This document shows, one piece after another, positions 2 to 61,301 of a stretch of 64,000 bases of DNA; the first letter of the stretch is position 1, and each line of letters opens with the position of its first letter. The stretch spans positions 36,880 through 100,879 of the forward strand of contig JAHFGX010000001.1 of NCBI GenBank assembly GCA_023247215.1, read 5' to 3'. This DNA comes from Candidatus Omnitrophota bacterium. GTDB lineage: Bacteria > Omnitrophota > Gorgyraeia > Aquiviventales > Aquiviventaceae. The position numbers were made by a program, and so were the translations under genes. Under the pieces are notes generated by a model. That model was not told the DNA's origin, did no database searches, and worked only from the letters and a program-made list of their open reading frames with translations.

Positions 2-904
2 CGCTCCGATTCCCGGGTCCGCTACGTGCGTCATCCGCGCAACATCGGGATGCACGCCAACCACAACTTCTGCATCGAGCAGAGCCGCGGGGAGTTCCTC
101 TGCTTCTTTCATGACGACGATCTCTATGCGCCGCAGATCCTCAGCACCTACGTGGCCTTCCTTAAGGCGCACCCCGAGGCGGGCATCGTCTGCTCTGATT
201 GGGAGCTCATCAACGGCGCGGGGGAGCGCATCGGGCTGCGGACGGCGCGGGCGGAGAGGGTGACGCCGGGATTGGTCTATCTCGACCGGACGATCCGTTC
301 CGGGCGCTCCTCCATCGGCTGCCCCGGAGCGCTGATCCGCCGCTCGGCGTTGGGGTCGATCCGGTTCGACGAGCAGGGCCCGCCGGGATTCGGCGACTTC
401 GTGGTGTGGTTCCAGATCGCGGAGCGCTGGGCTGTCGGCCATCTCACGCAGCGGTTGTGGCGCTATCGCCTGCATGGGCGAAACGTGAGCTGCCGCACCA
501 TCGAGTCCATTGTGCGAGATTATGATCAGGTGCTGATCGCGTATTGCGACGGACATCTCGCCCGGTGGCCGGCCCATGGGCGGCTCGTGGCCCGCTGGCG
601 CCGCGCGATCCGGCAGTATCTCTTCTGGGCGCTCGCCTATGAACTGGGGCTCCATTTCCGCCAGGGCGATGCCCAATCGGTGGCGCCCTCATCGGCGCGG
701 ACGGTCTTCGAGGTGGTGGCCTACCGGTTAACCCCGGAGCAGCTCCACGACGCCCAACGCCAGTTGCGGACGTATCGCACGGGTGTCGTGCAGACGGCAG
801 CCCTCGTCGCCATGCACGGGCTGATCGACCTGCATCTGACGCAACCGCTGGCGTGGGCCACCCGCCACGCCGCCCTCGTCCGCGGATTGCTTGGACTGCG
901 GTAG
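2..904 (+). CDS. Glycosyltransferase family 2, C-terminal part; 5' end lies outside the window and the listed M at 26 is internal
   Basis: Frame stays open from position 2. The acidic motif FFHDDDLYAP and the SDWELING region are typical of GT2 catalytic and acceptor regions. Same strand as the rest of the locus. Confidence 0.6.
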   Translation, partial: RSDSRVRYVRHPRNIGMHANHNFCIEQSRGEFLCFFHDDDLYAPQILSTYVAFLKAHPEAGIVCSDWELINGAGERIGLRTARAERVTPGLVYLDRTIRSGRSSIGCPGALIRRSALGSIRFDEQGPPGFGDFVVWFQIAERWAVGHLTQRLWRYRLHGRNVSCRTIESIVRDYDQVLIAYCDGHLARWPAHGRLVARWRRAIRQYLFWALAYELGLHFRQGDAQSVAPSSARTVFEVVAYRLTPEQLHDAQRQLRTYRTGVVQTAALVAMHGLIDLHLTQPLAWATRHAALVRGLLGLR

Positions 905-938
905 CGCACCCGACTAGGATTCTCAAGATCTTCTGAAC

Positions 939-2834
939 ATGTGCGGGATCGTCGGCGTGTGGGATTGGCAGGGGCAGGCCACGGGCCAGCCGGCTTTGGA
1001 CGCCATGGTCCAGACCCTATGCCACCGCGGGCCGGATGGACGCGATGCCCGGCGGCTGCCGGGGCCCGGGGCGCCGGTCGGCTTGGGCCACGCGCGGCTG
1101 CGGATCATTGATCTCTCCTGCGCGGCGGACCAGCCGATGGCCAATGACGACCAGTCGGTCTGGGTGGTCTTCAACGGCGAGATCTACAATTACCGGGAAC
1201 TGCGCGCGCAGTTGCAAGCCCGGGGCTGGCGGTTCCGGACCGCGTCGGATACCGAGGTGCTGCTGCGGCTTTATGAGGCGGAGGGGATCGGCGGCGTCAC
1301 GCAGCTTGAGGGGATGTTCGCCTTCGCCGTCTGGGACGGGCGGCAGCAGACGCTGTGGCTGGCGCGCGACCGCGTCGGCAAGAAGCCACTCTTCTACGCC
1401 GCCTCGCCGGCGCGGTTTCTCTTTGCCTCCGAGCCCAAGGCGATCCGCCGCCATCCGGAGTGGACGAGCCGGGTGAACACTGACTCGCTTCCGTCACTGT
1501 TCTTCTACGGCTATGTCCCAGCTCCGGACACCTGCCTTGCCGGGATCTCCGAGCTTTCTCCCGGCCACACGCTCCGGGTGGATGCCGCCGGCTCCGTGCA
1601 GGCGCAGGCCTATTGGGACGTGCCGCTGCCGGAGCCGGGAGCCCAGCCGTCCTCGTTGGAGGACGCGGCGGCTCGCGTGCGCACGTTGGTCGAGGCGGCC
1701 GTGGCGCGCCGCCTGGTCGCCGATGTCCCGCTGGGCGCCTTCTTGAGCGGCGGGCTGGACTCTTCAATCGTGGTGGGTGTGATGAGCCGGCTCCACCCCG
1801 AGCCGGTGCGGACGTTCAGCATTGGGTTTGCCGGGGACCCGCGCTTTGACGAAACCGCCTATGCGCGCGCCGTCTCCAAGCGGTTCCGCACGGCGCACAC
1901 GGAATTCATCGTTACGCCGGACGCGGTGAAGCTGGTGGAGCGCCTGGTCTGGCATCATGACGGACCGTTTGCCGATTCCTCGGCGATTCCCACCTATCTC
2001 TTGGCTGAACTGACGCGCCAGCACGTGACCGTGGCGCTCACCGGCGACGGAGGCGATGAGCTGTTTGCCGGCTACTCGCGGTTTGTCGCCGCGCTGGCCG
2101 CCGAGCGGGTGCCGCTGCCCCTCCGACAGGCGGCGCAGCAGGCCGCGTCGTGGGGCCCGGGTCGCGCGAGCAGCCGCGGCCTGTGGCGCGATCTGCGCAA
2201 GTTCGCCTCACACGCCAGCCGGCCGCTCTCCGAACGCTTCAGCCGCTGGGCGGCGGTGTTCTCTGACGATCTGCCGGAGCTGCTGCCGGACGCGTGCCGG
2301 TGGGGCCGCGACGAGCCGCCTGCGCCCTTGAGCCGCCTCGCTCCGTACGTGGAGCGCTCGCGGGGAGCTTCGGCGCTGACGCAACTGCTGTACGTCAATC
2401 TCAAAACCTATCTCCCCGGCGACCTGCTGGTCAAAATGGACCGCTGCACGATGGCGCACGCGCTGGAAGCGCGCTCGCCGTTTCTGGACCGCGAGCTGAT
2501 GGAATACGCCTTCACGCTGCCGGATGCGATGAAGCTCGAGGGCCGGCAGACGAAAGCCGTGCTGCGCCGGGCCTTCGCAGACCTGGTGCCGGCGGAGGTG
2601 CTCCGGCGCAGGAAAATGGGTTTTGGCGTGCCGCTGGCCCGGTGGTTCCGCCAGGACTTGCGCGACTTCGTGCAGGACGCGCTGCTCCCGCCGGAGGCGC
2701 GGCTGCGCCGCTACGTCAACCATACCTATGTCCAGCGGTTGGTGAAGGAGCACGAGCAGGGACGCGCGGACCATGCCCATCGCCTCTGGACCCTGCTGAC
2801 GTTCGAGGTCTGGCTCCGGGGCTTGGAGTCGTAA
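939..2834 (+). CDS. asnB: Asparagine synthetase (glutamine-hydrolysing) family amidotransferase; WbpS/WbpG-like enzyme of glycan loci
   Basis: N-terminal MCGIVG class-II glutamine amidotransferase nucleophile. Central SGGLDSS PP-loop ATP pyrophosphatase motif. Length 631 aa fits AsnB. Confidence 0.85.
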   Translation: MCGIVGVWDWQGQATGQPALDAMVQTLCHRGPDGRDARRLPGPGAPVGLGHARLRIIDLSCAADQPMANDDQSVWVVFNGEIYNYRELRAQLQARGWRFRTASDTEVLLRLYEAEGIGGVTQLEGMFAFAVWDGRQQTLWLARDRVGKKPLFYAASPARFLFASEPKAIRRHPEWTSRVNTDSLPSLFFYGYVPAPDTCLAGISELSPGHTLRVDAAGSVQAQAYWDVPLPEPGAQPSSLEDAAARVRTLVEAAVARRLVADVPLGAFLSGGLDSSIVVGVMSRLHPEPVRTFSIGFAGDPRFDETAYARAVSKRFRTAHTEFIVTPDAVKLVERLVWHHDGPFADSSAIPTYLLAELTRQHVTVALTGDGGDELFAGYSRFVAALAAERVPLPLRQAAQQAASWGPGRASSRGLWRDLRKFASHASRPLSERFSRWAAVFSDDLPELLPDACRWGRDEPPAPLSRLAPYVERSRGASALTQLLYVNLKTYLPGDLLVKMDRCTMAHALEARSPFLDRELMEYAFTLPDAMKLEGRQTKAVLRRAFADLVPAEVLRRRKMGFGVPLARWFRQDLRDFVQDALLPPEARLRRYVNHTYVQRLVKEHEQGRADHAHRLWTLLTFEVWLRGLES

Positions 2835-2842
2835 AAATTCCC

Positions 2843-2871
2843 TTGCGAGCGCTCAATGCCGTGCCCTATAA
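2843..2871 (+). promoter_or_regulatory. Candidate sigma70-like promoter: TTGCGA - 17 bp - TATAAT
   Basis: TTGCGA at 2843-2848 and a perfect TATAAT at 2866-2871 with a 17-bp spacer. It sits in the 37-bp intergenic gap upstream of the regulator gene, in an otherwise GC-rich context. Confidence 0.4.
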
Positions 2872-2886
2872 TTGAGTGTTCAAAAT

Positions 2887-3552
2887 ATGAACACTGAAGT
2901 CTACCGCGAGTTCCAGTTCCTGACGGAGATCTCTTCGGGAGATGCCGTAACCCAGCGGCGCCTGGCCAAGAAGTACGGCCTGGCGCTGGGTCTCACCAAT
3001 TTTCTGATCCGCCGGCTGGTCAAGAAAGGCTGCATCAAGATCGTCAACCTCCAGCGCAAACGCCTGCGCTACTTCTTGACTCCCAAGGGCATGGCGGAAA
3101 AGGCGCGGCTCAGCTATGAATATCTTGATTACTCGCTCGCCTTGTATCGCCACCTGCGCACCCTCCTGACCCATATTCTCCATCTGATCCGCGCCTCCGG
3201 CGGGACGCGCGTGGCCCTCTACGGCACGGGCGAGCTGGCGGAGATCGCCTTCCTCTTAGTGCAGCAGCACGGCTTGCAGATCGTCGCCGTGGTGGATGAA
3301 GCGTCTGCAGGCACCGTGTTCATGGACCGTCCGGTGCAGCCGGTGGCCGCGCTGGCCGGCGGTGCCTGCGACTTCGTCGTGGTCGCGTCTTTCGCGGATT
3401 TGGAGCGGATCCGTCAGCGCCTGGGGGAGGCCGGCGTGCCTGCCGAGCGCATCCTGGCGCTGTCGGATCGCGCCCCGATGCCAGCCGCATCTCAGGGCTC
3501 GTTGCTGCCAGCGATTCCGCTGGCTGAAGAAGAGGGAGCGCTCAGCCGATGA
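2887..3552 (+). CDS. Winged-helix transcriptional regulator with C-terminal Rossmann-like domain (alternative TTG start at 2872)
   Basis: N-terminal DAVTQRRLAKKYGLALGLTNFLIRRL is a wHTH signature. C-terminal RVALYGTGELAEIAFLLVQQHGLQIVAVVDE is Rossmann-like. It is the only regulator-like gene in the locus. Confidence 0.55.
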   Translation: MNTEVYREFQFLTEISSGDAVTQRRLAKKYGLALGLTNFLIRRLVKKGCIKIVNLQRKRLRYFLTPKGMAEKARLSYEYLDYSLALYRHLRTLLTHILHLIRASGGTRVALYGTGELAEIAFLLVQQHGLQIVAVVDEASAGTVFMDRPVQPVAALAGGACDFVVVASFADLERIRQRLGEAGVPAERILALSDRAPMPAASQGSLLPAIPLAEEEGALSR

Positions 3553-4286
3553 TTGTGCGGATGAAGCGTCGGCCGGTTCGCGCCCTGCTGCTTGCGGCGG
3601 CGCTCGCCGGCTGCTGGTCGCTCACCCGGCCGGCGATCACGCGGCAAGGCGTCAATTTCCGCGTGACCGAACATGCCGTGCCGCAGTATGCCAAGGCTGT
3701 GGATTTCCTCCGCCGGGACGGCGAGTACCGCGCCCTGGCCGCGCAGATCGTCCAGGGTCTTCACACCGACCGCGAGCGCGCCCTGGCGGTGTTCGAGTGG
3801 ACGCGCGGCCACATCCGCCCGATCCCGCAGGGATGGCCGGTGGTGGATGACCACGTGTGGCATATCATCATCCGAGGGTACGGGACCGACGACCAGATGG
3901 CCGATGTCTTCACCACCCTGTGCGCCTATGCCGGCGTGCCATCTTACTGGCGCTTCCTGCGTCATCCCGAGACTGGCGCCGTGCTGACCGTGTCGCTGGC
4001 GCGCCTGAATGGCCGCTGGGCGGTGTTTGACGTTCAGCATGACGCCATGTTCCAGGACGCGCAGGGCGGGTGGCTCACGCCGCAGGAGCTCGCCGCGGAT
4101 CCAGCCTTGTCGCATGTGGCGGATCGGGCGCGGGTGCTGGCCCAGGCGCCCTATCCGGCCTATTTCGCGGACCCGGCATTTCTTGCGCTGCCTCCGAGTC
4201 CGCTGCGTCCGGAACTGCAGATGCCGGGACCTCGATTAGCCTATGAGGCGCGGCGGGCGCTTCACCTCGCAGGGGTCGCTCAATGA
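3549..4286 (+). CDS. Lipoprotein with transglutaminase-like (Cys-His-Asp) domain
   Basis: Signal peptide plus lipobox LAGC at the N-terminus. Candidate catalytic triad spacing: TLCAYAG ... FDVQHD ... D. ATGA overlap with the upstream stop. Confidence 0.45.
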   Translation: MIVRMKRRPVRALLLAAALAGCWSLTRPAITRQGVNFRVTEHAVPQYAKAVDFLRRDGEYRALAAQIVQGLHTDRERALAVFEWTRGHIRPIPQGWPVVDDHVWHIIIRGYGTDDQMADVFTTLCAYAGVPSYWRFLRHPETGAVLTVSLARLNGRWAVFDVQHDAMFQDAQGGWLTPQELAADPALSHVADRARVLAQAPYPAYFADPAFLALPPSPLRPELQMPGPRLAYEARRALHLAGVAQ

Positions 4287-4396
4287 GCACGCCTCGAATT
4301 GGCCGGATCGCGCGTGGTTCGAGATGCGCCGGCTGCTCCATGTCGCGTGCGACTGGATGACCATCGCGGATGCCTAATCTGACCACAGGGGGAGCC

Positions 4397-5353
4397 ATGA
4401 GGATTGCGGAAGAAGAAACGCAGTTGGAGATCGCGCCGTTCATTAAATCCTTGCAGGAGGAGCCGTGGCCGGTTGCGGAGCATGTGCTGGTCATCGGCGA
4501 AATCGGCATCAACCATAACGGCGATCTGGGCATCGCCCAGCAGCTCATCGACATGGCCAAGGCGGCCGGAGCCGACGCGGTGAAGTTCCAAAAGCGCACG
4601 GTGGACCTGGTCTACACGAAGGAGTTCCTCGATTCGCCGCGGGAAAGCCCCTGGGGCCATACGCAGCGGGCGCAGAAAGCAGCGCTGGAATTCGGCCGGA
4701 ACGAGTATGACCAGATCGACGCCTATTGCCGGAACGTCGGGATCGATTGGTTCGCCTCGGCCTGGGATGTTCCGAGCCAGCTATTTCTGAGGCCCTATCA
4801 CTTGAAATACAACAAGATCGCCTCGCCCATGGTCACCCACCGGGAGCTGCTGGAGACGGTGGCGGACGAGCGCAAGCTCACGCTCCTGTCGACGGGCATG
4901 AGCGATTACGAGCAGCTCGACGCGGCGGTCGACGTGTTCCGGCGCCATCGCTGCCCGTTCATCCTCATGCATTGCGTCTCGGAGTACCCGGCGCCGGAAG
5001 GCGCGCTGAACTTGCGCTGTCTCGTGGAGCTGCGCCGCCGCTACAACTGTCCGGTGGGCTACAGCGGGCATGAGGTCACGATGGTGCCCGGGGTGCTGGC
5101 CGCCATGATGGGTGCGGTCGCGGTTGAGCGGCATATCACGCTGGATCGCGCCATGTACGGCAGCGACCAGGCCGCCTCGCTGGAGAAGCGCGGACTGGAA
5201 ATGCTCACGAGCTACATCCGCACCATTCCGATTGTCTTCGGCGACGGCGTCAAGCGCGTCACGCCTGGAGAAGCGGCCAACGCGAAGAAGTTGCGGTATT
5301 GGGGCATGTTCCACGGTCCGTCATCAGGATGGGAGACGCCGGGAGCCCGATGA
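4397..5353 (+). CDS. neuB: N-acylneuraminate (nonulosonic acid) synthase family protein, NeuB/PseI/LegI-like TIM barrel; no C-terminal SAF domain
   Basis: GEIGINHNGDL signature and further NeuB-family conservation (CPVGYSGHE, ERHITLD). GGGGGAG Shine-Dalgarno 6 bp upstream of the ATG at 4397; the alternative ATG at 4370 has none. At 318 aa it ends where the SAF/antifreeze-like domain would normally begin. Confidence 0.8.
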   Translation: MRIAEEETQLEIAPFIKSLQEEPWPVAEHVLVIGEIGINHNGDLGIAQQLIDMAKAAGADAVKFQKRTVDLVYTKEFLDSPRESPWGHTQRAQKAALEFGRNEYDQIDAYCRNVGIDWFASAWDVPSQLFLRPYHLKYNKIASPMVTHRELLETVADERKLTLLSTGMSDYEQLDAAVDVFRRHRCPFILMHCVSEYPAPEGALNLRCLVELRRRYNCPVGYSGHEVTMVPGVLAAMMGAVAVERHITLDRAMYGSDQAASLEKRGLEMLTSYIRTIPIVFGDGVKRVTPGEAANAKKLRYWGMFHGPSSGWETPGAR

Positions 5354-5655
5354 TCTACTGTTTCGACATTGACGGCACGCTGTGCACCGACACCGGCGGC
5401 AAGTACGCCTCGGCCGAGCCGCATCCGCAGATCATTGCGCAGGTGAACGCGCTGTTTACCCAGGGCCACCGCATCATTCTCTATACGGCGCGCGGATCGT
5501 CCACCGGCATGGACTGGCGCTCCGTGACAGAGCGGCAACTGAAGGAGTGGGGCATCCAGCACCATGAGCTGCACTTCGGCAAGCCTCGGGCGGATGTCTT
5601 CGTTGATGATAAGGCGGTCAATGTGGCCGTCTTCCGCGAACGGCAGCTTGCATGA
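5350..5655 (+). CDS. Small HAD-superfamily phosphatase (about 101 aa)
   Basis: Motif I FDIDGTLC, motif II YTARG, Lys, and motif IV FVDDK. ATGA overlap with NeuB on one side and with the cytidylyltransferase on the other. Confidence 0.65.
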   Translation: MIYCFDIDGTLCTDTGGKYASAEPHPQIIAQVNALFTQGHRIILYTARGSSTGMDWRSVTERQLKEWGIQHHELHFGKPRADVFVDDKAVNVAVFRERQLA

Positions 5656-6395
5656 ACCTGGCTGCGCTGATCCCCGCTCGAGGCGGGTCCAAAGGCATCC
5701 CGAAGAAAAACCTCCGGAGGCTGGGGGACCATCCGCTTCTCGCCTATTCGATCGCGGCCGCGCGCGCCTGTCCCGCTATCGATCGCGTCATGGTCTCGAC
5801 GGACTCCCCGGAGATTGCCGAGGTCGCCCGCGCGTATGGCGCGGACATCCCGTTTGTGCGTCCGGCGGAATTTGCGCAGGACGCCTCGACCGATTTTGAC
5901 GTGGTGCAGCACGTGTTGCAGTCGTTGCAGCAGGCCCGGCCGGACTGGATCGTGTTCTGCCGCCCCACCACGCCGCTGCGCGATCCATCGCTGCTGTCCG
6001 CGGCGATCGAGTTGCTGAAATCGCGGAAGGACGCGACGTCGCTGCGTTCGGTCCACGAGCTGGCTGAGCCGCCGCAGAAAATGATGGGGATGACGGATGG
6101 CTTGCTCACCGGTCTGTTTCCTCATGAGACGAGGAGCGAATACTACAATCTCCCCCGGCAGGCGTTCCCGCCCGCCTATCACCCGAACGGCTATGTGGAC
6201 ATCATGCGCAGCGAGGTGGTGCTCCACCAGCGCGCGCTGTACGGCCCGCGCGTGCTCGCGTTCGTCACCCCCATCGTTACCGAAGTGGACCGCCAGGAGG
6301 ACCTGGACTACCTGGCCTACCAGCTGGCGCAGCACCCGTCGCCGCTGAGCCGGTTGTTGGACGCAGAGCAGTCGGTGGCGGGACGGAGAGGTTGA
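5652..6395 (+). CDS. neuA: Acylneuraminate cytidylyltransferase (CMP-nonulosonic acid synthetase), NeuA/PseF/LegF-like
   Basis: N-terminal LIPARGGSKGIPKKNL is a CTP_transf_3 signature of NeuA type. About 247 aa. Confidence 0.8.
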   Translation: MNLAALIPARGGSKGIPKKNLRRLGDHPLLAYSIAAARACPAIDRVMVSTDSPEIAEVARAYGADIPFVRPAEFAQDASTDFDVVQHVLQSLQQARPDWIVFCRPTTPLRDPSLLSAAIELLKSRKDATSLRSVHELAEPPQKMMGMTDGLLTGLFPHETRSEYYNLPRQAFPPAYHPNGYVDIMRSEVVLHQRALYGPRVLAFVTPIVTEVDRQEDLDYLAYQLAQHPSPLSRLLDAEQSVAGRRG

Positions 6396-6397
6396 GC

Positions 6398-7780
6398 ATG
6401 GCAACCTCGGTGGCCGAGACGACCGCCTTTGGCATGACGCCGACCGTGGTGCCGCAGGTCCGGACGAAATTCCGCCGCATTCAGACGCCGCTGCCCGTCC
6501 CTGATTCGCTGCCGGTGCTGGAAGCGTTGTCGGCGTATGAAGCGAGGTCCATGCACGGCCAGCTGCCGGTGGTGTGGGACCGGGCCAAGGATTTTCAGGT
6601 GTGGGACCGGTTCGGCAACTGTTGGATCGACTTCACCTCGACGATTTTTGTGGCCAATGTCGGGCACGCGAATCCGGCGGTCACGCAGGCGATTGAGGAC
6701 GCGCTGAAGCAGGGCCTGGTGCACAGCTACACGTTTGCGACCGAGATCAGGGCGCGCTACCTGCGGCAGCTGATCCACGCGACGCCGCGCGAATGCGAGA
6801 AGGCGTTCCTGGTGTCTTCCGGAACCGAGGCGACCGAATGCGCGGTCAAGCTGATCCGGCTGCACGGGCGCGCGGCCGGCAAGCGCCGCGGCGGCGTGGT
6901 GTCGTTTGAAGGCAGCATGCATGGTCGGACGATGCTGGCCCAAATGCTGGGCGGCACCCCCGCGGCGCGCGCCTGGATCGGCTATGACGATCCGAACGTG
7001 CACCGGCTCCCGTTTCCGTGCCCCTGGGAGGTGCAGGATGGCGCAGAACGATTTGCCCAGGATCTGGCGCATCTGGCGGCGCAGGGCGTGGATGCCGAGC
7101 AGGATCTCGCGGGATTTATCCTTGAGCCGTACCTCGGCTGGGGGGCGATCTTTTTTCCGTCGGCCTACGTGCAGGCGCTGGCTCAGTTTACGCGGCAGCA
7201 TCACATCCTGCTTGTCTTCGACGAAATCCAGGCCGGATTCGGCCGGACCGGCCGATGGTTTGCGTATCAGCATTACGGGGTGGAAGCCGACCTGGTTTGC
7301 TGCGGCAAAGGCATGAGCTCCAGCCTGCCGCTGGCGGGCGTGCTGGGCAAGGCCTCGCTGCTGGATTTGCCTGAAGCCGGGTCCATGAGCAGCACGCATT
7401 CGGCGAATCCGCTCAGCTGCGCGGCGGGCCTGGCGACGCTGCAGCAGATGGAAGCGCTGGATCTGGTCCAGGCCTCGCAGCGGAAGGGGGAGCGGCTCTT
7501 GGCGGGACTGCATGAGATCCAGCGGCGATTTCCGGCGCATGTCCTGCGCGTGTGCGGCAAGGGTTTGCTCGCGGCGCTGCATCTGGCTGATCCGGCCACG
7601 GGCCTTCCGGACACGGCCACGGCCAGCCGGGTGTGCGAGCGGGCGATGCAGAAGGGATTGCTCGTGGTGCATACCGGACGGGAGTCCATCAAGATCGGCC
7701 CGCCGTTGACCATCAGCGACGAGGCGCTGGCCGAGGGCGTCGAGGTCCTGGCCGAGGCCCTGCAGGAGATCATTGGATGA
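6398..7780 (+). CDS. Class-III PLP-dependent aminotransferase (acetylornithine/GABA aminotransferase fold); alternative TTG start at 6392
   Basis: About 460 aa. Gly-rich PLP-binding region VSSGTEATECAVKL; DEIQ region FDEIQAGFGRTG. The catalytic lysine region is less clearly seen. The family call rests on overall similarity. Confidence 0.65.
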   Translation: MATSVAETTAFGMTPTVVPQVRTKFRRIQTPLPVPDSLPVLEALSAYEARSMHGQLPVVWDRAKDFQVWDRFGNCWIDFTSTIFVANVGHANPAVTQAIEDALKQGLVHSYTFATEIRARYLRQLIHATPRECEKAFLVSSGTEATECAVKLIRLHGRAAGKRRGGVVSFEGSMHGRTMLAQMLGGTPAARAWIGYDDPNVHRLPFPCPWEVQDGAERFAQDLAHLAAQGVDAEQDLAGFILEPYLGWGAIFFPSAYVQALAQFTRQHHILLVFDEIQAGFGRTGRWFAYQHYGVEADLVCCGKGMSSSLPLAGVLGKASLLDLPEAGSMSSTHSANPLSCAAGLATLQQMEALDLVQASQRKGERLLAGLHEIQRRFPAHVLRVCGKGLLAALHLADPATGLPDTATASRVCERAMQKGLLVVHTGRESIKIGPPLTISDEALAEGVEVLAEALQEIIG

Positions 7781-8235
7781 TCGCCGCCGAGCGCAAAGGC
7801 ATCGCGGTGCGGCACGTCGGCGTCGTGGTCAAGGATCTGGAACGGTCGCTGCAGTTCTATCGCGATCTGTTGGGGCTGCGCGTTGTGACGCGCAGGGAGG
7901 AAGCCGGCGAGTATCTTGATCGCTTGCTGGCATTGAAGAACGCCAGGATGACGACGGTGAAGCTGGCCGCTGCGGAGGGGGGCGCCGTCATCGAGTTGCT
8001 GCGGTTCCATTCGCCTCAGGGTGCAGCGGAGGCACCGCGGACGATCTGCACGCCCGGCCCCACGCATGTGGCCTTTGGCGTGGAGGATCTGGCGGCGCTG
8101 TATCAGCGGCTGCGGCAGGCCGGCATCCGGTTCAACGCGCCGCCGCAGCGCTCCCCGGACGGCTCCGCCAAGGTGTGTTGCTGCCAGGACCCGGATGGCA
8201 TGACGATCGAATTGGTCGAGGTGCTGTCCTCATGA
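7777..8235 (+). CDS. VOC (glyoxalase / bleomycin-resistance / dioxygenase) family protein
   Basis: HVGVVVKDLERSLQFYRDLLG and HVAFGVEDL paired beta-alpha-beta-beta-beta modules. ATGA overlap with the aminotransferase stop. Confidence 0.65.
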   Translation: MIAAERKGIAVRHVGVVVKDLERSLQFYRDLLGLRVVTRREEAGEYLDRLLALKNARMTTVKLAAAEGGAVIELLRFHSPQGAAEAPRTICTPGPTHVAFGVEDLAALYQRLRQAGIRFNAPPQRSPDGSAKVCCCQDPDGMTIELVEVLSS

Positions 8236-9092
8236 GCGTGGCGATTGGGATCATGCAGGGCCGGCTGTCCCCGCCGGCGAATGGACGAATTCAATCGTTC
8301 CCCGTGGCGACGTGGCGCGAGGAATTTGCGCTGGCCCGCGAAGCCGGGCTGGCCTGCATTGAATGGGTGTATGAGCAAGAGACGGCGCGGGACCATCCGC
8401 TGATGACCGAGGCCGGCATCGCGGATCTCCGGTGGCTGTCGCAGCAATCCGGCATCACAGTGCGCTCCATCTGCGCCGACTGTTACATGACCGACCGCCT
8501 GATCACGGCAGCCGGCGAGGTGAGGTCGTGCAACGTCACTCATCTGCGATGGCTGATGGATCGCGCCGCCGGCCTGGGCAGCCGGCACATCGTGCTGCCG
8601 TTTGTGGATGGTTCCTCCCTGCGTTCTCAGCGTGAGCGGGAAGCGCTGCTTGCGCTGCTGCGTGAGGTGCGGTCTGATGTTGAGCGCTCCGGTATGGCGC
8701 TCCACATCGAGAGCGATTTGAGCCCGCAGGAGCAGGTGCGGGTCATGACCGCCGTCAACCATCCGCTGATCCGCATCACGTATGACATGGGTAACTGCGC
8801 CGCCGCGGGCCATGATCCGCAGGAAGAGCTCGACGCGATCGGCCCCTGGCTCGGCAGCGTGCATGTGAAGGATCGCACGCTGGGCGGCGGCACGGTCCCG
8901 CTTGGCACTGGCGCGGTGGATTTTCCAGCCTGCTTCCGGATCTTTCATGAGCTGGGATTCGCCGGTCCGTTTATTCTCCAAGCGGCCCGCGATTCCAGCG
9001 TCACCGAGCTGGAGCACGCCAAGCGCAATCGCGCCTTTGTGGAGCAGTATCTTGAGCAGGCGGCCTGGGATGGATCTGCGTCTGCGCGGTAA
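8232..9092 (+). CDS. Sugar phosphate isomerase/epimerase (xylose-isomerase-like TIM barrel) family protein
   Basis: AP-endonuclease-2/xylose-isomerase-like TIM pattern: IEWVYE, HIVLPF, LHIESD, GSVHVKD. ATGA overlap. Confidence 0.55.
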   Translation: MSVAIGIMQGRLSPPANGRIQSFPVATWREEFALAREAGLACIEWVYEQETARDHPLMTEAGIADLRWLSQQSGITVRSICADCYMTDRLITAAGEVRSCNVTHLRWLMDRAAGLGSRHIVLPFVDGSSLRSQREREALLALLREVRSDVERSGMALHIESDLSPQEQVRVMTAVNHPLIRITYDMGNCAAAGHDPQEELDAIGPWLGSVHVKDRTLGGGTVPLGTGAVDFPACFRIFHELGFAGPFILQAARDSSVTELEHAKRNRAFVEQYLEQAAWDGSASAR

Positions 9093-9843
9093 GGTGGTGC
9101 TGGTCACCGGGTCGAGCCGGGGGATTGGATTGGCGATTGCCGGCGCGTTTCTGCGCGAAGGCGCGAAGGTCGCTATTACCGGCCGCGACGGCGCGGCGCT
9201 TAAAACGGCGGCCGCGGCGCTCGCGAAGCAGCACGGCCGTTCGCGGCTCCTGGCGATGCAAGGCGATTTGAGCCATCCGGACGGCATCCGCGCCGCGCTG
9301 CGCCAGACGGTCCAGCGGTTCGGGGGGCTGGATGCGGTCGTAGCCAACATCGGCAGCGGGACCGGCCGAACCGGATGGCGATGGAGCGTTGAGGAATGGG
9401 AATCGTCCTTGAACACCAATCTGGTCGGCAGCATGGCGGTGGCCAGCGCGGCCTTGCCGCACCTGCTGAAGCGGAACGGCAGCCTCACCTTCATTTCCTC
9501 TATTGCGGGCCGGGAGGCGCTGCGCGCGCCCATCAGCTACGGCGCGTCTAAAGCGGCACTGCAGCATGCGGCCAAGCAGCTCTCGCAGGCAGTCGGGCCA
9601 GGCGGGGTGCGGGTCAATGTGGTGGCGCCGGGCAATATCTATTTCCCCGGCGGCGCGTGGGACCGCAAGATGACAGAGGAGCCGAAGCGGTGGCAGTCGT
9701 ACCTCAACACTGAGGTCCCGCTGCGGCGTTTCGGGAAAGCCGATGAGGTGGCGGATGCGGTGGTGTTTCTCGCTTCCGCGCGGGCGGCTTTCATCACCGG
9801 CGCCTGCCTGGTGGTGGATGGAGGGCAGACGCGCGCATGTTAG
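9070..9843 (+). CDS. SDR-family oxidoreductase (short-chain dehydrogenase/reductase)
   Basis: TGSSRGIG NAD(P)-binding motif, catalytic YGASK (YxxxK), and NIGSG. 23-bp overlap with the upstream gene. Confidence 0.8.
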   Translation: MDLRLRGKVVLVTGSSRGIGLAIAGAFLREGAKVAITGRDGAALKTAAAALAKQHGRSRLLAMQGDLSHPDGIRAALRQTVQRFGGLDAVVANIGSGTGRTGWRWSVEEWESSLNTNLVGSMAVASAALPHLLKRNGSLTFISSIAGREALRAPISYGASKAALQHAAKQLSQAVGPGGVRVNVVAPGNIYFPGGAWDRKMTEEPKRWQSYLNTEVPLRRFGKADEVADAVVFLASARAAFITGACLVVDGGQTRAC

Positions 9844-11054
9844 TCTCCGCGCCGCCAGCAATGAAGCGCGCTGCGTCACCGGCGCCATCACCCACACGGC
9901 GGCGCTGGGCGCGCGCCGCGCTGAGTATGGTTTCGCTGCTGATGATAGAACTTTTGTCGATGAGCGTCTTCGCGATCCGCGGGGAGCTGAAAGGGGAGCT
10001 GGCGTTTCATCCGTTGTTCCGTCCGTTTCGACTCACGTCGTCCACGTTTGGGGAGGAGCGGTTTCTCTACGATCCGTTTCTCGGCTTTCGGTACCGTCCG
10101 AACACCACCTATGGCAGACTGTCCATTAATCAGTTCGGCTTCATTGATAACGGCTCGCCGTTTCCCGACCTGTCCCACAAGGCCGCCGGCACCCAGCGCA
10201 TTCTCATCCTTGGAGGTTCGACGGTGGCCGGCAGCGGGGCCTCCTCCAACGCCACTACCATCCCGGCGCAGCTGGAACGGATGCTGAACGCCCGGGGCGG
10301 CCGGTATGAGGTCATGAACGCCGGGGTGGATGGGTACACCTCGTTTCAGGAGTTGGGCTATTTTCAGTCCACGCTCTATCGGTACAGCCCAGACCTGGTG
10401 ATCTTTTACGACGGGTGGAACGATTTCGCCTACCCGTCCTGGGCTGGCGGGTACCAGAATGCGTACCAGCAGGAGCGTTGCTGGCCGAATGGCCACGAGT
10501 ATGCGTTGTACCTGCTCACCGTCTTCTCCGATGGCCAGGCCACAATGCGCCATCTCCTGAACACCAGTGTCTTGGTCAGCAAGTTCTACACCACGCGCCT
10601 GCTGCAGAAAGCCTACCGGCGGATGGGCGGGCGCGTCATGACCGAAACCCTGAATGTCAGGACCCTGCCGGGCAAAATCGTGCTGCCTCCGGAGGAGGCG
10701 GCGCGCCGCTGGCTCGACATGGTGGAAAACGCGGTGGCGGCGGTCTCAGGGCGAGGTGTGCCGATCATCTACGCCTTGCAGCCGACGGTGCTGGACAAGA
10801 TGTCACTGACGCCTGAGGAGGCGCGCATTGTCCCGCCCATGCCGCGCGCGCAGATCCAGGCCTACTACGCGCAGAGCCGGGCCGGGTTCGAACGGCTGGC
10901 CTCGAAATACCATGGGCCGAACGTCGCCATGGTGGATTTCTCACCCACGATATGGCGGGGGGTGCAGCAGACCGTGTATCTCGATCCGTGCCACACCAAC
11001 GATGCCGGCAACGAGCTGATCGCCCGTCGGCTGGCCACCTATGTCAAGCCGTGA
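9837..11054 (+). CDS. Membrane-anchored protein with partial SGNH/GDSL-hydrolase-like motifs; putative glycan O-acyl esterase/transferase
   Basis: N-terminal TM helix. SGNH-like blocks I and III are recognisable: ILILGGSTVAG and DGWNDFAY. The later residues I treated as blocks V (DxxH) and catalytic are a doubtful reading. The true start may be a later Met (about 9858). Confidence 0.5.
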   Translation: MLVSAPPAMKRAASPAPSPTRRRWARAALSMVSLLMIELLSMSVFAIRGELKGELAFHPLFRPFRLTSSTFGEERFLYDPFLGFRYRPNTTYGRLSINQFGFIDNGSPFPDLSHKAAGTQRILILGGSTVAGSGASSNATTIPAQLERMLNARGGRYEVMNAGVDGYTSFQELGYFQSTLYRYSPDLVIFYDGWNDFAYPSWAGGYQNAYQQERCWPNGHEYALYLLTVFSDGQATMRHLLNTSVLVSKFYTTRLLQKAYRRMGGRVMTETLNVRTLPGKIVLPPEEAARRWLDMVENAVAAVSGRGVPIIYALQPTVLDKMSLTPEEARIVPPMPRAQIQAYYAQSRAGFERLASKYHGPNVAMVDFSPTIWRGVQQTVYLDPCHTNDAGNELIARRLATYVKP

Positions 11055-12141
11055 CGAGCTATTGTTGACGGCCGCCACAGCAGCCGGGACGCCTCAGAGT
11101 GATGGGGCGTGTCCCGTGTGCTCGGCGCAGCCGGAAACGCCTGTCAGGCTGTCGTACCTGGAGCAGGATTTCAACCATGTGCCGCCGGCTGAAAATCCGT
11201 TCTCCGGACGCACAGTGCTCGTTTGCCAGCAGTGCGGGTTTGGCTGGGCTGATCCGCCGGCGGCATGGGACCGCCTCCAGGCGTTTTACCGGTTGGTGTA
11301 CCGGCATGTTGGTTCCGTGAATGTGGATGCCGTGGACACCTCGACCTTCACCGGCCTTGGGCCGCTTGATCCCCGCGCGGTGGCTCATGTGCTGCTGGCC
11401 AAGATGTTCACAACGCTTGCCGCAGGTGATGCGGCGCTCGATATCGGTCCGGGCCAGGGAGGCAGCTTCCACGCATTGGCCCGACTGGCCCCAGGCATGA
11501 CGCATTGGGCCTTTGAGGCAGACCGCGTGGCCGGCCGGTTTTTGCAGCAGAAGCTCAACGTGCAGGTCATTCCGGAAATGTTTCGCCCGGGCATGGCCGC
11601 GCAACCGGCGTGCGGCATGCAGCGCTTTAAGCTCATCATCATGTCCCATGTGGCCGAGCATTTTAATGGCACCGACGCCGTCGCGGTGTTTCAGGAGGCG
11701 CGGACGCTGCTGGCTCAGGATGGCGTGCTGGTGTGCGAGGTGCCGCACAACGATTGGCGGCGCTACGCCGGGATGCGCCGCAATGATTCCCCGCACCTGG
11801 CCTTTTTCAGCGCCGAGGCATTGAGGCAGGGGTTGATCCGGGCTGGATTCGCCGTCAAATTTCTCGACACCTGCGGCCAGCGATACGATATCTGGTGGGC
11901 GGCTACGTCCGCCGCTCCGGGATATGGAACCCACAAGGAGCGCCCGCCGCGAAGCGCATGGATCAAACGGCTCTATAAATCGCTGCCGGGGCGCATGCCA
12001 CGAACGGTGGAGCGATGGGCGAACGATGCCTTGCTGTTGCGGGGGCAGATGGACCGCATGTGGCGCTCTGACGAATTGAATTATGGCGGGGAACGAACCT
12101 GTTTACGAGTGGTGGCGGCCCATGCCGACAACAACCAGTAA
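11041..12141 (+). CDS. Class I SAM-dependent methyltransferase with N-terminal Cys4 zinc ribbon (sugar C-/O-methyltransferase-like)
   Basis: CPVCS ... CQQCGF zinc ribbon, then SAM motif I LDIGPGQGGS and a D/E acidic loop. Same architecture as TylC3-type C-methyltransferases. Confidence 0.6.
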   Translation: MSSRDELLLTAATAAGTPQSDGACPVCSAQPETPVRLSYLEQDFNHVPPAENPFSGRTVLVCQQCGFGWADPPAAWDRLQAFYRLVYRHVGSVNVDAVDTSTFTGLGPLDPRAVAHVLLAKMFTTLAAGDAALDIGPGQGGSFHALARLAPGMTHWAFEADRVAGRFLQQKLNVQVIPEMFRPGMAAQPACGMQRFKLIIMSHVAEHFNGTDAVAVFQEARTLLAQDGVLVCEVPHNDWRRYAGMRRNDSPHLAFFSAEALRQGLIRAGFAVKFLDTCGQRYDIWWAATSAAPGYGTHKERPPRSAWIKRLYKSLPGRMPRTVERWANDALLLRGQMDRMWRSDELNYGGERTCLRVVAAHADNNQ

Positions 12142-12991
12142 ACGGCCTTCGGCTCGCGCACAAGGACGGCGCCTTTTCGATCTGACCGGCCGTGTGGCGG
12201 TCATCACCGGAGGCGCCGGTCTGCTCGGGGTGAAGCACGCCGAGGCGATTGCCGAAATGGGCGGCCTGCCTGTGCTGTGCGATGTGCGCGGTGAGGAGGC
12301 GGAGCGCGCCGCCGCGCGGATCGCCAAGCGCTATGCGGTCCGGGCGTTAGGCGTGCGTGCCGACATTACCGATCCGCGGCAGGTGGCCACGCTGCGGGAC
12401 CGCACCCTCTCCTCCTTTGGGCGCGTGGACATTTTGATCAACAACGCCGCGTGCAATCCGGCGGTGACGGCGGCGGGCCGCAATGGACCAGCATGGTCGC
12501 GGCTGGAGCAGTTTCCGTTGAAGGCATGGAACCGCGACGTCGCGGTCGGGTTGACCGGCGCGTTTTTGTGCAGCCAGGCGATCGGCGGCGCCATGGCCCG
12601 GCGCGGGCGCGGCGTGATTTTGAACATCGCCTCGGACCTCTCGGTGATCGCCCCGGACCAGCGGATCTACCGGCAGCCGAAGCGGGCTGCGGCTCAGCAA
12701 CCGGTGAAGCCCGTGAGCTACTCGGTCGTCAAAACCGGCCTCCTTGGCCTCAGCCGGTATCTGGCCACCTACTGGGCGGCGCAGGGCGTGAGGGTGAACA
12801 CGCTGTCCCCGGGCGGCGTGGCTGCGGATCAGCCTGAGGAATTCGTCCAGCGCCTTTCACAACTCATTCCTCTGAAGCGCCTGGCGCATCCTGATGAGTA
12901 TAAAGCGGCGGTGGTGTTTCTGGTGTCGGATGCCTCCTCGTACATGACGGGCGCGAACCTCGTGATGGACGGGGGGAGGAGCTGCTGGTGA
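12122..12991 (+). CDS. SDR-family oxidoreductase
   Basis: VAVITGGAGLLG, NNAA, YSVVK (YxxxK). Alternative GTG/ATG start at 12083. Confidence 0.75.
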   Translation: MPTTTSKRPSARAQGRRLFDLTGRVAVITGGAGLLGVKHAEAIAEMGGLPVLCDVRGEEAERAAARIAKRYAVRALGVRADITDPRQVATLRDRTLSSFGRVDILINNAACNPAVTAAGRNGPAWSRLEQFPLKAWNRDVAVGLTGAFLCSQAIGGAMARRGRGVILNIASDLSVIAPDQRIYRQPKRAAAQQPVKPVSYSVVKTGLLGLSRYLATYWAAQGVRVNTLSPGGVAADQPEEFVQRLSQLIPLKRLAHPDEYKAAVVFLVSDASSYMTGANLVMDGGRSCW

Positions 12992-14919
12992 AACCGAGCG
13001 CCGGGTTCTTCGAAACCGCGCAGGAGCTGGATCAGCTGCGCGCGTGGTCGGCGCAGACCAACACCGAGCTGATGCTGGTGGCGTTGACGCCGGAGGCGGA
13101 TGCCGCCGCAGAGCAGCGGGGGCTGACGTATCACAGCATTGAAGATTTGTACATGGAAGAGGATCTGGTGGTGCGCGGTTTGGCGCAATTTGAGATCTTG
13201 GAGCGGTTCTGCGATGCGGTGGACGAGGCGCTTCACGCCAATGCCGGGCCAGTCTCCGAGGTCCGCCATTTTTCACTCCGATATGAGTTTCAGTTTCTCA
13301 AAATGATTATGGACGCGTTGCTGCATCGGACGGCCACGCTGGCGTCGGCTCTGGAGACGCTGGCCCCCCAGGCGGTGGTCTATTGCCGTTATCCGTCGGA
13401 TGTGGTGCCGGCCGGTCGCTGGGCCATTCCATCTTCCGTCTCCCGCTGGCTGCTGCCGTTCGTTGCGGAACAGCGAGGTTGCCAGGCGATCGGCCTGACC
13501 GTTGCTGCCCGGCCGCCGGCGCGGTTTCCCGGCATGGCAGCGCAGTTGAAGCGGTGCGTCAGAAGCGCTTCGGCTCGCGCCATAGGGCTGGGGCGATGGT
13601 TGCGGCGCCACCATGCGGCTCTTGTCGGCGCATCCCGGCCCCCTGGGGTGCGGGGCTCACAAGAGGCGACCCTCGTGTTGACGGGTTTGTGGTCGGATCG
13701 GGATGCGCTGCAGGCATGGCTGGCCGAAGGCGGCCGCCTGATACATTGGCGGACATTAGTGAGGCGCGTGGCATCGCCGTCCCCCGATGCTGCCGCCGAT
13801 GCTGAGCTTGAGGCGGTCGTCGAGCGCTGCTGGAATGCGCTGAGACACGATGCCGAGGTGCGAGCGTTGTTCAGGATTGACGGCGTGGATCTCGCCCCGC
13901 TGGTCGAGCAGCCGCTCCGCTCGTTGTTCGCGGATCTCTTGTCCAGGCATTGCCGGATTTCGCGCCGGATGGATGCGGCCTTCAAGACGGTCAGCCATCC
14001 CATTGTCCTTGGATCAACCTTCGTCCGGGTTGAAGAGGTGGCGTGTGCCGCGGCTGCCCGCCGGGCAGGGATCCCGGTGATTGCGTATCAGCATGGAGGG
14101 TTTCTTGGGTATGTCGATTTTCCGATGCAGCGGTTTTGCGACATGGGGCTGCCGGACTATTACCTCAGTTACGGAAGGGGTGTTTCGGAAGCCATGGAGC
14201 GGTTCTCCGGGCAGACCATCCCTGTGACCATTGGCTCTTCGGATCTTGATCGCTTGATGACCGCGCATCGGAAGCCCGGCCGCCGCCCGGGCCGGACGGC
14301 CGTGTATGTGGTGACGCTGCTCATGGGCGACCGGCGCTATTTCACTCTCCATGCCTATCCGGATATCCAGTATTGGCGGCTGCAGCGGCAGGTAATCGAG
14401 CGGTTGAGCCACGCCGACATCGAGTTGATCGTGAAGCTGGACCCGCGCGATATGGTGCCCAATCCTCTGAAGTCATGGGCCCGGCGGCAGCGCGTGAAGC
14501 GGTGCCGGTTCGTGCGGGATGTGTCGTTTGCCGAGGTGCTCGGCCGGGGAGACCTGATCATCATCGACAGCCCCTCGACCACGCTGCTGCAGGCGCTGGC
14601 GACGCATAAGCCGGTGATCGCGTTCGCGGATCGCCGCTTCATTCATTTCACGCCGGAGGCGACCGGGTTGCTCAGAAAGCGCGCGGTTTTTTCCACCACG
14701 CCGGAAGAATTTTTTCGGGACATCGATGCGGCTGTGCACACCCCGTCGTGGGGACCGGTCTCGCCGGTAAACGATGAGTTCCTCAGCCGCTATGGCACCC
14801 ATGAGAACGATGGCGGCTCGGCGCGCCGCGCCGCGCAGGCGCTGTGGGACATCGCGCGCCACCCGCGCGATGCACGGGGGGAGCAGGCACCAGCGGCATT
14901 CACGAGCGTCGGAGGATAA
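12988..14919 (+). CDS. Large TagF/KpsC-like transferase (CDP-glycerol glycerophosphotransferase / capsule-polysaccharide-synthesis superfamily), 643 aa
   Basis: C-terminal block DLIIIDSPSTTLLQALATHKPVIAF resembles the D-x-LITDYSS ... KPxIxF signature of TagF/KpsC/KpsS-type transferases. The N-terminal 350 aa has no recognisable motif. GTGA overlap start. Confidence 0.4.
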   Translation: MKPSAGFFETAQELDQLRAWSAQTNTELMLVALTPEADAAAEQRGLTYHSIEDLYMEEDLVVRGLAQFEILERFCDAVDEALHANAGPVSEVRHFSLRYEFQFLKMIMDALLHRTATLASALETLAPQAVVYCRYPSDVVPAGRWAIPSSVSRWLLPFVAEQRGCQAIGLTVAARPPARFPGMAAQLKRCVRSASARAIGLGRWLRRHHAALVGASRPPGVRGSQEATLVLTGLWSDRDALQAWLAEGGRLIHWRTLVRRVASPSPDAAADAELEAVVERCWNALRHDAEVRALFRIDGVDLAPLVEQPLRSLFADLLSRHCRISRRMDAAFKTVSHPIVLGSTFVRVEEVACAAAARRAGIPVIAYQHGGFLGYVDFPMQRFCDMGLPDYYLSYGRGVSEAMERFSGQTIPVTIGSSDLDRLMTAHRKPGRRPGRTAVYVVTLLMGDRRYFTLHAYPDIQYWRLQRQVIERLSHADIELIVKLDPRDMVPNPLKSWARRQRVKRCRFVRDVSFAEVLGRGDLIIIDSPSTTLLQALATHKPVIAFADRRFIHFTPEATGLLRKRAVFSTTPEEFFRDIDAAVHTPSWGPVSPVNDEFLSRYGTHENDGGSARRAAQALWDIARHPRDARGEQAPAAFTSVGG

Positions 14920-14922
14920 CGC

Positions 14923-26756: not shown

Positions 26757-26769
26757 GAGCGCACGATGG

Positions 26770-61294: not shown

Positions 61295-61301
61295 CCTGCG
61301 C

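Follow-up and report, generated by a model that had tools for sequence, protein, structure and literature searches.

What sugar is to be expected from a gene string that resembles a nonulosonic-acid (NulO) pathway, and whose synthase lacks the C-terminal SAF domain, whose phosphatase is only 101 aa long and whose aminotransferase belongs to class III, was the question raised by a 64,000-nt stretch of DNA from a Candidatus Omnitrophota bacterium (contig JAHFGX010000001.1, positions 36,880–100,879; hereafter the window). The operon at approximately 4397–14919 of the window probably makes and transfers a cytidine monophosphate (CMP)-activated 3-deoxy-2-ulosonic acid by a phosphorylated route of the type known for 3-deoxy-D-glycero-D-galacto-non-2-ulosonic acid (Kdn), and adds an amino group, the likely product being a CMP-activated, aminated Kdn-like ulosonic acid. 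The identity, active-site competence and conserved linkage of synthase, phosphatase, cytidylyltransferase and aminotransferase are supported by sequence, as is a synthase signature of the Kdn-9-phosphate-synthase type; we infer the substrate and chain length, the site at which and the stage when amination takes place, and what the VOC, TIM-barrel, short-chain dehydrogenase/reductase (SDR) and LIC12162-family proteins do.

The synthase and its nearest characterised relative

The synthase matched PF03102 over its full length (210.9 bits, profile positions 1–241 of 241), contains the GINHNGD motif, and belongs to the NeuB family, all metal, phosphoenolpyruvate (PEP) and catalytic residues of Neisseria meningitidis NeuB being kept (E25, K53, Q55, K129, S132, S154, Y186, S213, H215, E234, H236 and D247). 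In this comparison the sugar site differs at three positions, F112 being replaced by W, E134 by M and N184 by S, and the SAF arginine (Arg314) has no equivalent. The profile search of the synthase gave no match to the SAF domain (PF08666), and no SAF-like stretch was encoded in the three forward frames of 5200–5700. A frameshift hiding a SAF domain was ruled out, because the start codon of the HAD gene and the stop codon of NeuB share bases, no SAF frame lies downstream, and the homologues are uniformly about 300 aa long. The synthase scored under the cut-offs of the NeuB/LegI equivalog TIGR03569 (215.8 bits, cut-off 399.65) and of PseI TIGR03586 (161.7 bits, cut-off 340.25).

Homologues of the synthase were searched for among 5.8 billion proteins, and at least 8000 candidates were scored, the best 120 of which were all 297–334 aa in length, matched PF03102 only, and shared 72–83% identity with the synthase despite coming from different phyla. 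A locus scan using one genome per species found 191 relatives (genome stretches), and the best 80 of these, at 53–83% identity to the synthase, came from bacteria (Omnitrophota, Chloroflexi, Planctomycetes, Acidobacteria, Magnetococcales, Caulobacter, Pelagibacteraceae, Prochlorococcus, Lachnospiraceae and Treponema) and archaea (Thermoplasmatales and Woesearchaeota). The SAF-less clade containing the synthase is deep (57–83% identity over more than 10 phyla), and in a distance tree it was placed well apart from the SAF-bearing NeuB/LegI/PseI/SpsE enzymes (26–37% identity), and also apart from a second SAF-less lineage represented by the Leptospira structure PDB 6ncs (35%). The latter was considered as a close relative and rejected, as it has F112 and D134 and belongs to a different SAF-less lineage nearer LegI/NeuB-like enzymes. 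About 30% of NeuB sequences, mostly from environmental organisms, are without SAF (PMC8208679). An earlier note on this DNA, made from the sequence alone, had described the missing SAF domain as unusual; the absence is real, but it is the norm for the clade and for the Kdn-9-phosphate synthase of Prymnesium parvum. Three related loci (loci are cited by number; L077 7709–8770, L080 1853–2917 and L084 2974–3996) carry a canonical SAF-bearing NeuB/PseI/LegI-like paralogue beside the clade member, and their occurrence in one locus argues that the two enzymes are non-redundant, such organisms probably making two different ulosonic acids.

By alignment and tree, the nearest characterised relative of the synthase appears to be this P. 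parvum Kdn-9-phosphate synthase (CAMPEP_0191217894, translated from the supplement of PMC6200933), which is 312 aa long, has no SAF domain, and shares 31% identity with the synthase by BLAST and 36% over the NeuB domain (138 bits). The alignment is colinear from end to end (residues 23–307 and 12–307), and in a neighbour-joining tree the P. parvum enzyme formed the sister branch of the synthase clade, on a long branch. Among the 34 sequences compared, the combination of W112 with a non-acidic residue at 134 was found outside the clade only in the P. parvum synthase (W/S there, W/M in the window synthase), all NeuB/LegI/PseI/SpsE/6ncs-type sequences having F or C at 112 and E or D at 134; this signature was derived here from those 34 sequences and is not a published definition. 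The P. parvum enzyme accepts only mannose 6-phosphate, and not N-acetylmannosamine (ManNAc) 6-phosphate, arabinose 5-phosphate or free sugars (PMC6200933). For the window synthase, PEP plus an aldose phosphate is the best-supported reaction class. What the earlier note had taken for the core of a sialic/legionaminic/pseudaminic-like pathway is real as an ulosonic-acid synthase/phosphatase/cytidylyltransferase core, but lies closer to the Kdn route.

The 101-aa phosphatase (mini-HAD) has HAD motifs I–IV (D6/D8, T46, K77, D85/D86) conserved at 95% or more in 32 aligned sequences, and its best PDB match was 9iqw, a 134-aa "capsule biosynthesis protein" (E=1.7e-10). It did not match the Kdn-9-phosphate/KdsC-type phosphatase models NF058599 and TIGR01670, and gave no significant BLAST match to BT1713, the characterised Kdn-9-phosphate phosphatase of Bacteroides thetaiotaomicron. 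Within 5 kb of the synthase, the mini-HAD was found in 30 of 82 related loci, a BT1713-homologous phosphatase (29–39% identity) in 27, either of them in 56, and both in a single locus; these and the other neighbourhood counts are lower bounds, made with our own open reading frame (ORF) calls in GC-rich DNA and tblastn with coverage thresholds. That two unrelated phosphatases take turns beside the synthase is good evidence for a phosphorylated synthase product, a phosphorylated intermediate in the pathway is likely, and the mini-HAD is proposed to be an ulosonate-phosphate phosphatase. The 9-phosphate route that the earlier note read from the HAD gene thus gains support from the 56 loci and from the Kdn-9-phosphate signature; among bacteria it is already known from B. 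thetaiotaomicron, where such a route leads to Kdn. Some of the BT1713-type homologues are fusions with a GmhA-like SIS isomerase or with the cytidylyltransferase (the latter in L007 6567–7760 and L027 6910–8085, 391–397 aa). In L006, L020, L025, L028, L031 and L032 the mini-HAD is apparently fused to a methyltransferase (338–376 aa, own ORF calls), these fusions sitting just downstream of the synthase.

The cytidylyltransferase scored under the cut-off of PseF TIGR03584 (149.1, cut-off 205.7) and, over its N-terminal 126 aa, was 35% identical to the CMP-Kdn synthetase of P. parvum. We propose that this CTP_transf_3 enzyme is a CMP-ulosonate synthetase.

The aminotransferase slot and the other cassette members

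The aminotransferase is of class III by its PF00202 match, as the earlier note had it, and not of the DegT/PseC/LegC type. Its best NCBIfam score was 292 bits against a cut-off of 552, and it fell under the cut-offs of all listed families, so it is not ArgD, GabT or another named equivalog; against GabT and an archaeal amino-acid racemase, which have the same fold, it scored 200–213 bits. Relative to Escherichia coli GabT, the pyridoxal phosphate (PLP) lysine, D239, Q242 and T297 are kept, and R141 is kept in 18 of 20 cassette orthologues; E211 is replaced by W in all 20, and R398 by K in 19, with a gap in the remaining one. In GabT, R398 binds the alpha-carboxylate of glutamate or 2-oxoglutarate, and loss of this arginine marks the aminotransferase as a distinct subfamily. 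In about 20 loci of distant phyla, the gene after that of the cytidylyltransferase is an orthologue (44–66% identity), and in Acidobacteria AH-259-A15 (L004, 12203–14389) the public gene call gives a 728-aa fusion of CTP_transf_3 to Aminotran_3. The scores below cut-off, the E211W/R398K signature and the cassette linkage rule out a housekeeping argD/gabT/hemL enzyme, and by these features the aminotransferase appears to be a genuine, cassette-specific pathway component.

A class-IV (IlvE/D-amino-acid-type) aminotransferase takes the same slot in 19 other loci, class III being present in 20 and both together in none. About eight aminotransferase-free loci carry distinct SDR clades, either directly after the cytidylyltransferase gene (L069, L074, L077, L080, L082 and L027) or upstream of the TIM-barrel gene (L039 and L043), which suggests that these variants make hydroxy or epimer versions of the same sugar. 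The presence of an aminotransferase or an SDR in the variant loci is read as a sign of a carbonyl intermediate whose fate is amination or reduction, depending on the lineage. Conservation of the synthase whatever the variant, together with the aminotransferase–cytidylyltransferase fusion, suggests but does not prove that amination follows assembly of the backbone.

In the neighbourhood table of 84 loci, the TIM barrel and the two SDRs were the most frequent partners of the synthase (44–45 loci; barrel in 44), with SDR1 conserved after the TIM-barrel gene and SDR2 present at 50–71% identity in 45 loci. The nearest named and solved relative of the barrel is the L-ribulose-5-phosphate 3-epimerase UlaE, and the protein is proposed to be a sugar or sugar-phosphate isomerase or epimerase; barrel and SDRs may supply the aldose phosphate or else modify the product. 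The VOC gene follows the class-III aminotransferase gene in most loci of that type, and its product may, by family, be an isomerase or epimerase. In L014 the VOC gene accompanies a class-IV enzyme, and L069 and L074 have it but no aminotransferase; because of these three loci the idea that class III plus VOC is the stereochemical equivalent of class IV alone was dropped.

The SGNH hydrolase has no homologue in the other related loci and is, at a guess, a lineage-specific tailoring enzyme. The methyltransferase preceding SDR2 recurs at 45–50% identity in L005 and L012, other loci carrying unrelated methyltransferases. The LIC12162-like protein gave no matches to the PDB by sequence and showed a GT-B fold by fold comparison; its family (PF27859 / TIGR04331) is also found by a SAF-less NeuB and a CTP_transf_3 gene in Leptospira, and the protein is proposed to be a CMP-sugar transferase.

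In the pathway envisaged, the synthase would condense PEP with an aldose 6-phosphate, likely mannose 6-phosphate or a relative prepared by the TIM barrel and the two SDRs, to give an ulosonate 9-phosphate, from which the mini-HAD would strip the phosphate before the CTP_transf_3 enzyme forms the CMP-sugar. Oxidation by an SDR would create a carbonyl at one position, which the class-III aminotransferase, acting with the VOC protein, would convert to an amine, probably at or next to the cytidylylation step. The methyltransferase and SGNH enzymes would tailor the sugar, which the GT-B LIC12162-family protein would transfer to a glycan to be flipped by Wzx.

The cassette was found in Omnitrophota, Chloroflexi, Planctomycetes, Acidobacteria, Chlamydiae, Alphaproteobacteria, Bacillota and archaea; a Pelagibacteraceae genome has it in full, and Prochlorococcus has the synthase with a KdsC-type phosphatase. 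The copy in the window is an ordinary member of this widespread cassette, and its features that are odd by the standard of textbook NulO pathways are standard for the cassette. In L047, L057, L068, L075, L079 and L084 (Lachnospiraceae, Roseburia, Treponema and other Bacillota), a fusion of a KdsC-type phosphatase to a GmhA-like SIS isomerase comes after the SAF-less synthase and, in all of these but L047, so does a thiamine diphosphate (ThDP) enzyme; several of these loci have FkbM-type methyltransferases and CDP-hexose genes (RfbF/RfbG-like), in a neighbourhood unlike that of the window.

Operon layout and the surrounding glycan locus

The cassette lies in an unbroken string of plus-strand genes spanning 26–18238 (Table 1). 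From the synthase on, neighbouring genes overlap by 4–23 bp or sit at most 3 bp apart, with 4-bp overlaps (ATGA) at the NeuB/HAD, HAD/cytidylyltransferase and aminotransferase/VOC junctions and a spacing of 2 bp between the cytidylyltransferase and aminotransferase genes; the ATGA overlaps agree with the earlier description of synthase, HAD and NeuA-type genes as contiguous and translationally coupled. All genes named in that description, which ended at 7780, are present, but the module continues: the co-oriented, overlapping string extends at least as far as 14919, or to 18238 when the Wzx flippase is counted, intergenic gaps in the PhyH/methyltransferase/Wzx stretch being −4 to +3 bp.

Table 1. 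Positions in the window of the genes of the plus-strand string and of a second sub-cluster, with profile matches (scores in bits where no E value is given)
Feature	Positions	Strand	Match or remark
GT2 fragment	26–904	+	
AsnB-type glutamine-dependent amidotransferase	939–2834	+	PF00733 Asn_synthase E=4e-111
MarR_EPS-like winged-helix regulator, C-terminal Rossmann-like part	2872–3552	+	TIGR04176 64.5 (cut-off 88); HTH_24
Transglutaminase-core-like protein	3549–4286	+	PF01841 E=2.4e-6
SAF-less NeuB-family synthase, 318 aa	4397–5353	+	PF03102 E=2.5e-62
Minimal capless HAD phosphatase, 101 aa	5350–5655	+	HAD_PNKP 26.8 bits; TIGR01689 22 bits
CTP_transf_3 cytidylyltransferase	5652–6395	+	PF02348 E=5.5e-24
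Class-III (fold-type I) aminotransferase	6398–7780	+	PF00202 E=5e-89
VOC/glyoxalase-fold protein	7777–8235	+	PF00903 E=6.7e-23
Xylose-isomerase-like TIM barrel (AP_endonuc_2)	8232–9092	+	PF01261 E=2e-24
SDR oxidoreductase 1	9070–9843	+	adh_short_C2 E=3.5e-53
SGNH/GDSL hydrolase-fold protein	9837–11054	+	Lipase_GDSL_2 E=2.4e-14
S-adenosylmethionine (SAM) methyltransferase, N-terminal Cys-rich segment	11041–12141	+	Methyltransf_23 E=3e-14
SDR oxidoreductase 2	12122–12991	+	adh_short_C2 E=4e-43
LIC12162-family protein, GT-B fold	12988–14919	+	
PhyH-family dioxygenase	14923–15927	+	PhyH E=6.8e-12
Second methyltransferase	15924–16721	+	
Wzx-type flippase	16718–18238	+	Polysacc_synt_3 E=3.8e-8; end of overlapping string
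DegT aminotransferase	19073–20227		Second sub-cluster
HMGL-like aldol-type TIM barrel	20227–21855		Second sub-cluster
HAD, 252 aa	21852–22610		Second sub-cluster
Unknown 289-aa protein			Second sub-cluster; between HAD and LdpA-like gene
LdpA-like 4Fe-4S protein	23435–24463		Second sub-cluster
KdsB-like CTP_transf_3	near 24457 (likely true start)–25227		Second sub-cluster
B12-binding radical SAM enzyme	25032–26756		Second sub-cluster
661-aa protein			Second sub-cluster, last gene; no Pfam match

Upstream of the synthase, the AsnB-type protein scored 501.7 against TIGR01536, above the cut-off of 267.1, and 585.1 against the XrtA/PEP-CTERM amidotransferase model TIGR03108, below the cut-off of 816.9. 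Two genes (regulator and transglutaminase-like) and a 110-bp gap separate it from the synthase, and of 82 related loci only 4 were found to have a homologue, its position differing among them. This rare co-occurrence ruled out AsnB as part of the module, and together with the differing positions it places AsnB outside the conserved cassette; by sequence it looks like an exopolysaccharide (EPS)-locus neighbour, resembling the asparagine-synthase-type amidotransferases common in EPS loci. Enzymes of the AsnB/WbpS type amidate carboxyl groups to give uronamides, and the acetamidino groups on pseudaminic and legionaminic acids come from PP-loop enzymes of the WbpG/PseA type. Installation of an acetamidino group by AsnB, raised in the earlier note, is not supported in view of the four loci, the varying positions and the EPS-type character of the enzyme; amidation of an acidic sugar in the polymer by AsnB is possible.

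The regulator gene, for which the public call starts at about 2887 (221 aa), has homologues upstream of the synthase in eight other loci. The transglutaminase-like protein has a probable N-terminal signal or lipobox-like region, and a counterpart only in a Planctomycetales locus (L012, 48% identity). A sigma-70-like promoter match (10 of 12 positions) was noted at 2843–2872, between the AsnB and MarR_EPS-like genes; a promoter and terminator scan of the region gave a site count no higher than chance.

The remainder of the window is a large O-antigen/EPS locus with many GT2/GT4/GT9 transferases, a carbamoyltransferase, deacetylases, a WecA/PglC-like initiating transferase and a Wzy/ligase, and DegT aminotransferase and 4,6-dehydratase-like genes are found elsewhere in the window. 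A second apparent CMP-sugar sub-cluster lies at 19073–28647, and homologues of its cytidylyltransferase (38–59% identity) were found in L002, L007, L042, L044, L051 and L066, in all of these but L051 near a family-f26 protein (HpcH/HpaI by Pfam in L002). At the far window end, a uracil-DNA glycosylase superfamily gene (61272–61994) may mark the end of the glycan locus.

Alternative products and comparison with known systems

Synthase, phosphatase and cytidylyltransferase together suffice for CMP-Kdn (PMC6200933), about half of the related loci have no aminotransferase at all, and the window, a long locus for several sugars, contains further aminotransferases and dehydratases, all of which would suit a product that is plain CMP-Kdn or another non-aminated ulosonic acid, with the aminotransferase, VOC, TIM-barrel and SDR proteins forming a separate sugar pathway within the operon. 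We hold this to be unlikely: the aminotransferase follows the cytidylyltransferase in all loci of the class-III type and is fused to it in L004, a class-III or class-IV aminotransferase or a third SDR fills the same slot in most loci, and the cassette has no nucleotidyltransferase for a second sugar. Improbable, too, is another chain length, in which a pentose 5-phosphate or heptose 7-phosphate would be extended to an 8- or 10-carbon amino-ulosonic acid by the logic of 3-deoxy-D-manno-oct-2-ulosonic acid (Kdo) and its 8-amino derivative (Kdo8N). The pairing of the synthase in related loci with KdsC-type phosphatases and GmhA-like SIS isomerases, sometimes fused, mirrors KdsD/KdsA/KdsC/KdsB, and the TIM barrel is closest to a pentulose-5-phosphate 3-epimerase. 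Once the phosphatase has exposed a terminal hydroxyl, oxidation and transamination could follow at that end, as in Kdo8N. Terminal aldehydes are common substrates of class-III enzymes, and if the substrate here were an aldehyde, the interchange of class-III and class-IV enzymes would be accounted for as well. However, the P. parvum enzyme, the sole characterised one to share the signature, rejected arabinose 5-phosphate (PMC6200933), and no SIS isomerase is present in the cassette of the window.

A canonical sialic, legionaminic or pseudaminic acid pathway, including N-acetylneuraminic acid (Neu5Ac) made by an animal-like 9-phosphate route, is very unlikely. A NeuB-family synthase, a phosphatase and a NeuA-like gene are indeed present, Ricaldi et al. 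proposed such an animal-like route for the Leptospira NeuB fusion (PMC3438082), and the DegT aminotransferase and 4,6-dehydratase-like genes elsewhere in the window could be counted in its favour. Yet the synthase scored far under both equivalog cut-offs, forms a clade separate from the SAF-bearing NeuB/LegI/PseI enzymes (at most 37% identity), differs from them in sugar-site residues and has no SAF arginine; the cassette is without a NeuC/LegG-type 2-epimerase, a ManNAc kinase and an N-acetyltransferase, and some loci carry a canonical SAF-bearing paralogue beside the clade member.

Several points weigh against the aminated, Kdn-type product that we prefer. Identity to the characterised Kdn-9-phosphate synthase is just 31–36%, and a long branch appears in what is a simple distance tree, which leaves room for a substrate other than that of the P. 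parvum enzyme; for Kdn-9-phosphate synthases the comparison covered P. parvum but not BT1714 of B. thetaiotaomicron. The mini-HAD fell under the cut-off of every curated family, and 26 of the 82 related loci have no recognisable phosphatase within 5 kb. The amino donor is uncertain, given loss of the alpha-carboxylate-binding arginine, the place and timing of amine installation are our own suggestion, and for the VOC, TIM-barrel and SDR proteins the roles given were guessed from their families. A literature search, with incomplete coverage of the literature, found no paper describing the cassette.

More tentatively, and with less than even confidence, the cassette could represent an undescribed, widespread route in which a Kdn-style backbone is built from a sugar phosphate and then aminated by a class-III or class-IV enzyme to a new amino-ulosonic acid. 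Cell-surface recognition, interactions with phages and grazers, and biofilm matrices are all shaped by sugars of the sialic-acid type, and the cassette is very common (at least 8000 synthase candidates, 191 genome stretches, more than 10 phyla), with no characterised example found. Such a route, if true, would be a further biosynthetic logic for these sugars besides those of neuraminic (Neu), legionaminic (Leg) and pseudaminic (Pse) acids, in abundant environmental lineages; a defined product would better annotate the many genes labelled "N-acetylneuraminate synthase family protein", and the W112/non-acidic-134 signature is a possible marker of NeuB enzymes that use sugar phosphates.

Among known systems, the cassette shares with the CMP-Kdn pathway the order of PEP plus sugar 6-phosphate, dephosphorylation and CMP activation, a single-domain NeuB of about 310 aa without SAF and with W112 and a non-acidic 134 (P. 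parvum), and a BT1713-type phosphatase adjoining clade members in 27 loci. It differs in that the window phosphatase is a capless HAD unrelated in sequence to BT1713, and its aminotransferase, VOC protein, xylose-isomerase-like barrel, two SDRs and methyltransferases have no counterpart in the Kdn pathway. With N. meningitidis NeuB (1xuz), Campylobacter jejuni PseI (8h2c) and Bacillus subtilis SpsE (1vli) the synthase shares the Pfam family, the metal, PEP and catalytic residues and a CMP-transferase gene downstream, but it is SAF-less, 26–30% identical and partnered by a phosphatase; the NDP-sugar module known from Leg and Pse synthesis is absent, and the cassette has no NDP-sugar 4,6-dehydratase, DegT aminotransferase, acetyltransferase or hydrolysing 2-epimerase.

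The Leptospira locus (6ncs, PMC3438082) also combines a SAF-less NeuB with CTP_transf_3, SDRs and a LIC12162-family protein, and has a SIS isomerase; its NeuB, however, is of the other SAF-less lineage (35% identity, F112 and D134) and groups with SAF-bearing LegI/NeuB-like enzymes, and the locus (L085) has an aldo-keto reductase and no class-III aminotransferase. In the L. interrogans NeuB fusion, the C-terminal "phosphatase domain" was described as homologous to endonucleases (PMC3438082). That domain may be an AP_endonuc_2 barrel like the one in this cassette, and not a phosphatase; a homologue search on 6ncs did not reveal the fusion protein of Ricaldi et al.

Enzymes of the GabT/ArgD type share fold and PLP residues with the window aminotransferase, which differs in sitting in a sugar operon and in being sometimes fused to the cytidylyltransferase. 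In Shewanella, the KdnB oxidase and the KdnA aminotransferase act on Kdo before CMP activation to give Kdo8N, KdnB being a metal-dependent alcohol dehydrogenase, KdnA DegT-like, and the synthase KdsA-type with an eight-carbon backbone. The shared idea is to oxidise and transaminate an assembled ulosonic acid, and not an NDP-hexose beforehand; the enzyme families are other than those of the cassette. SAF-less NeuB sequences, the three-step Kdn core and the bacterial 9-phosphate route are already known, and what sets the cassette apart from characterised systems is its minimal phosphatase together with the added aminotransferase, VOC protein, TIM barrel, two SDRs and methyltransferases.

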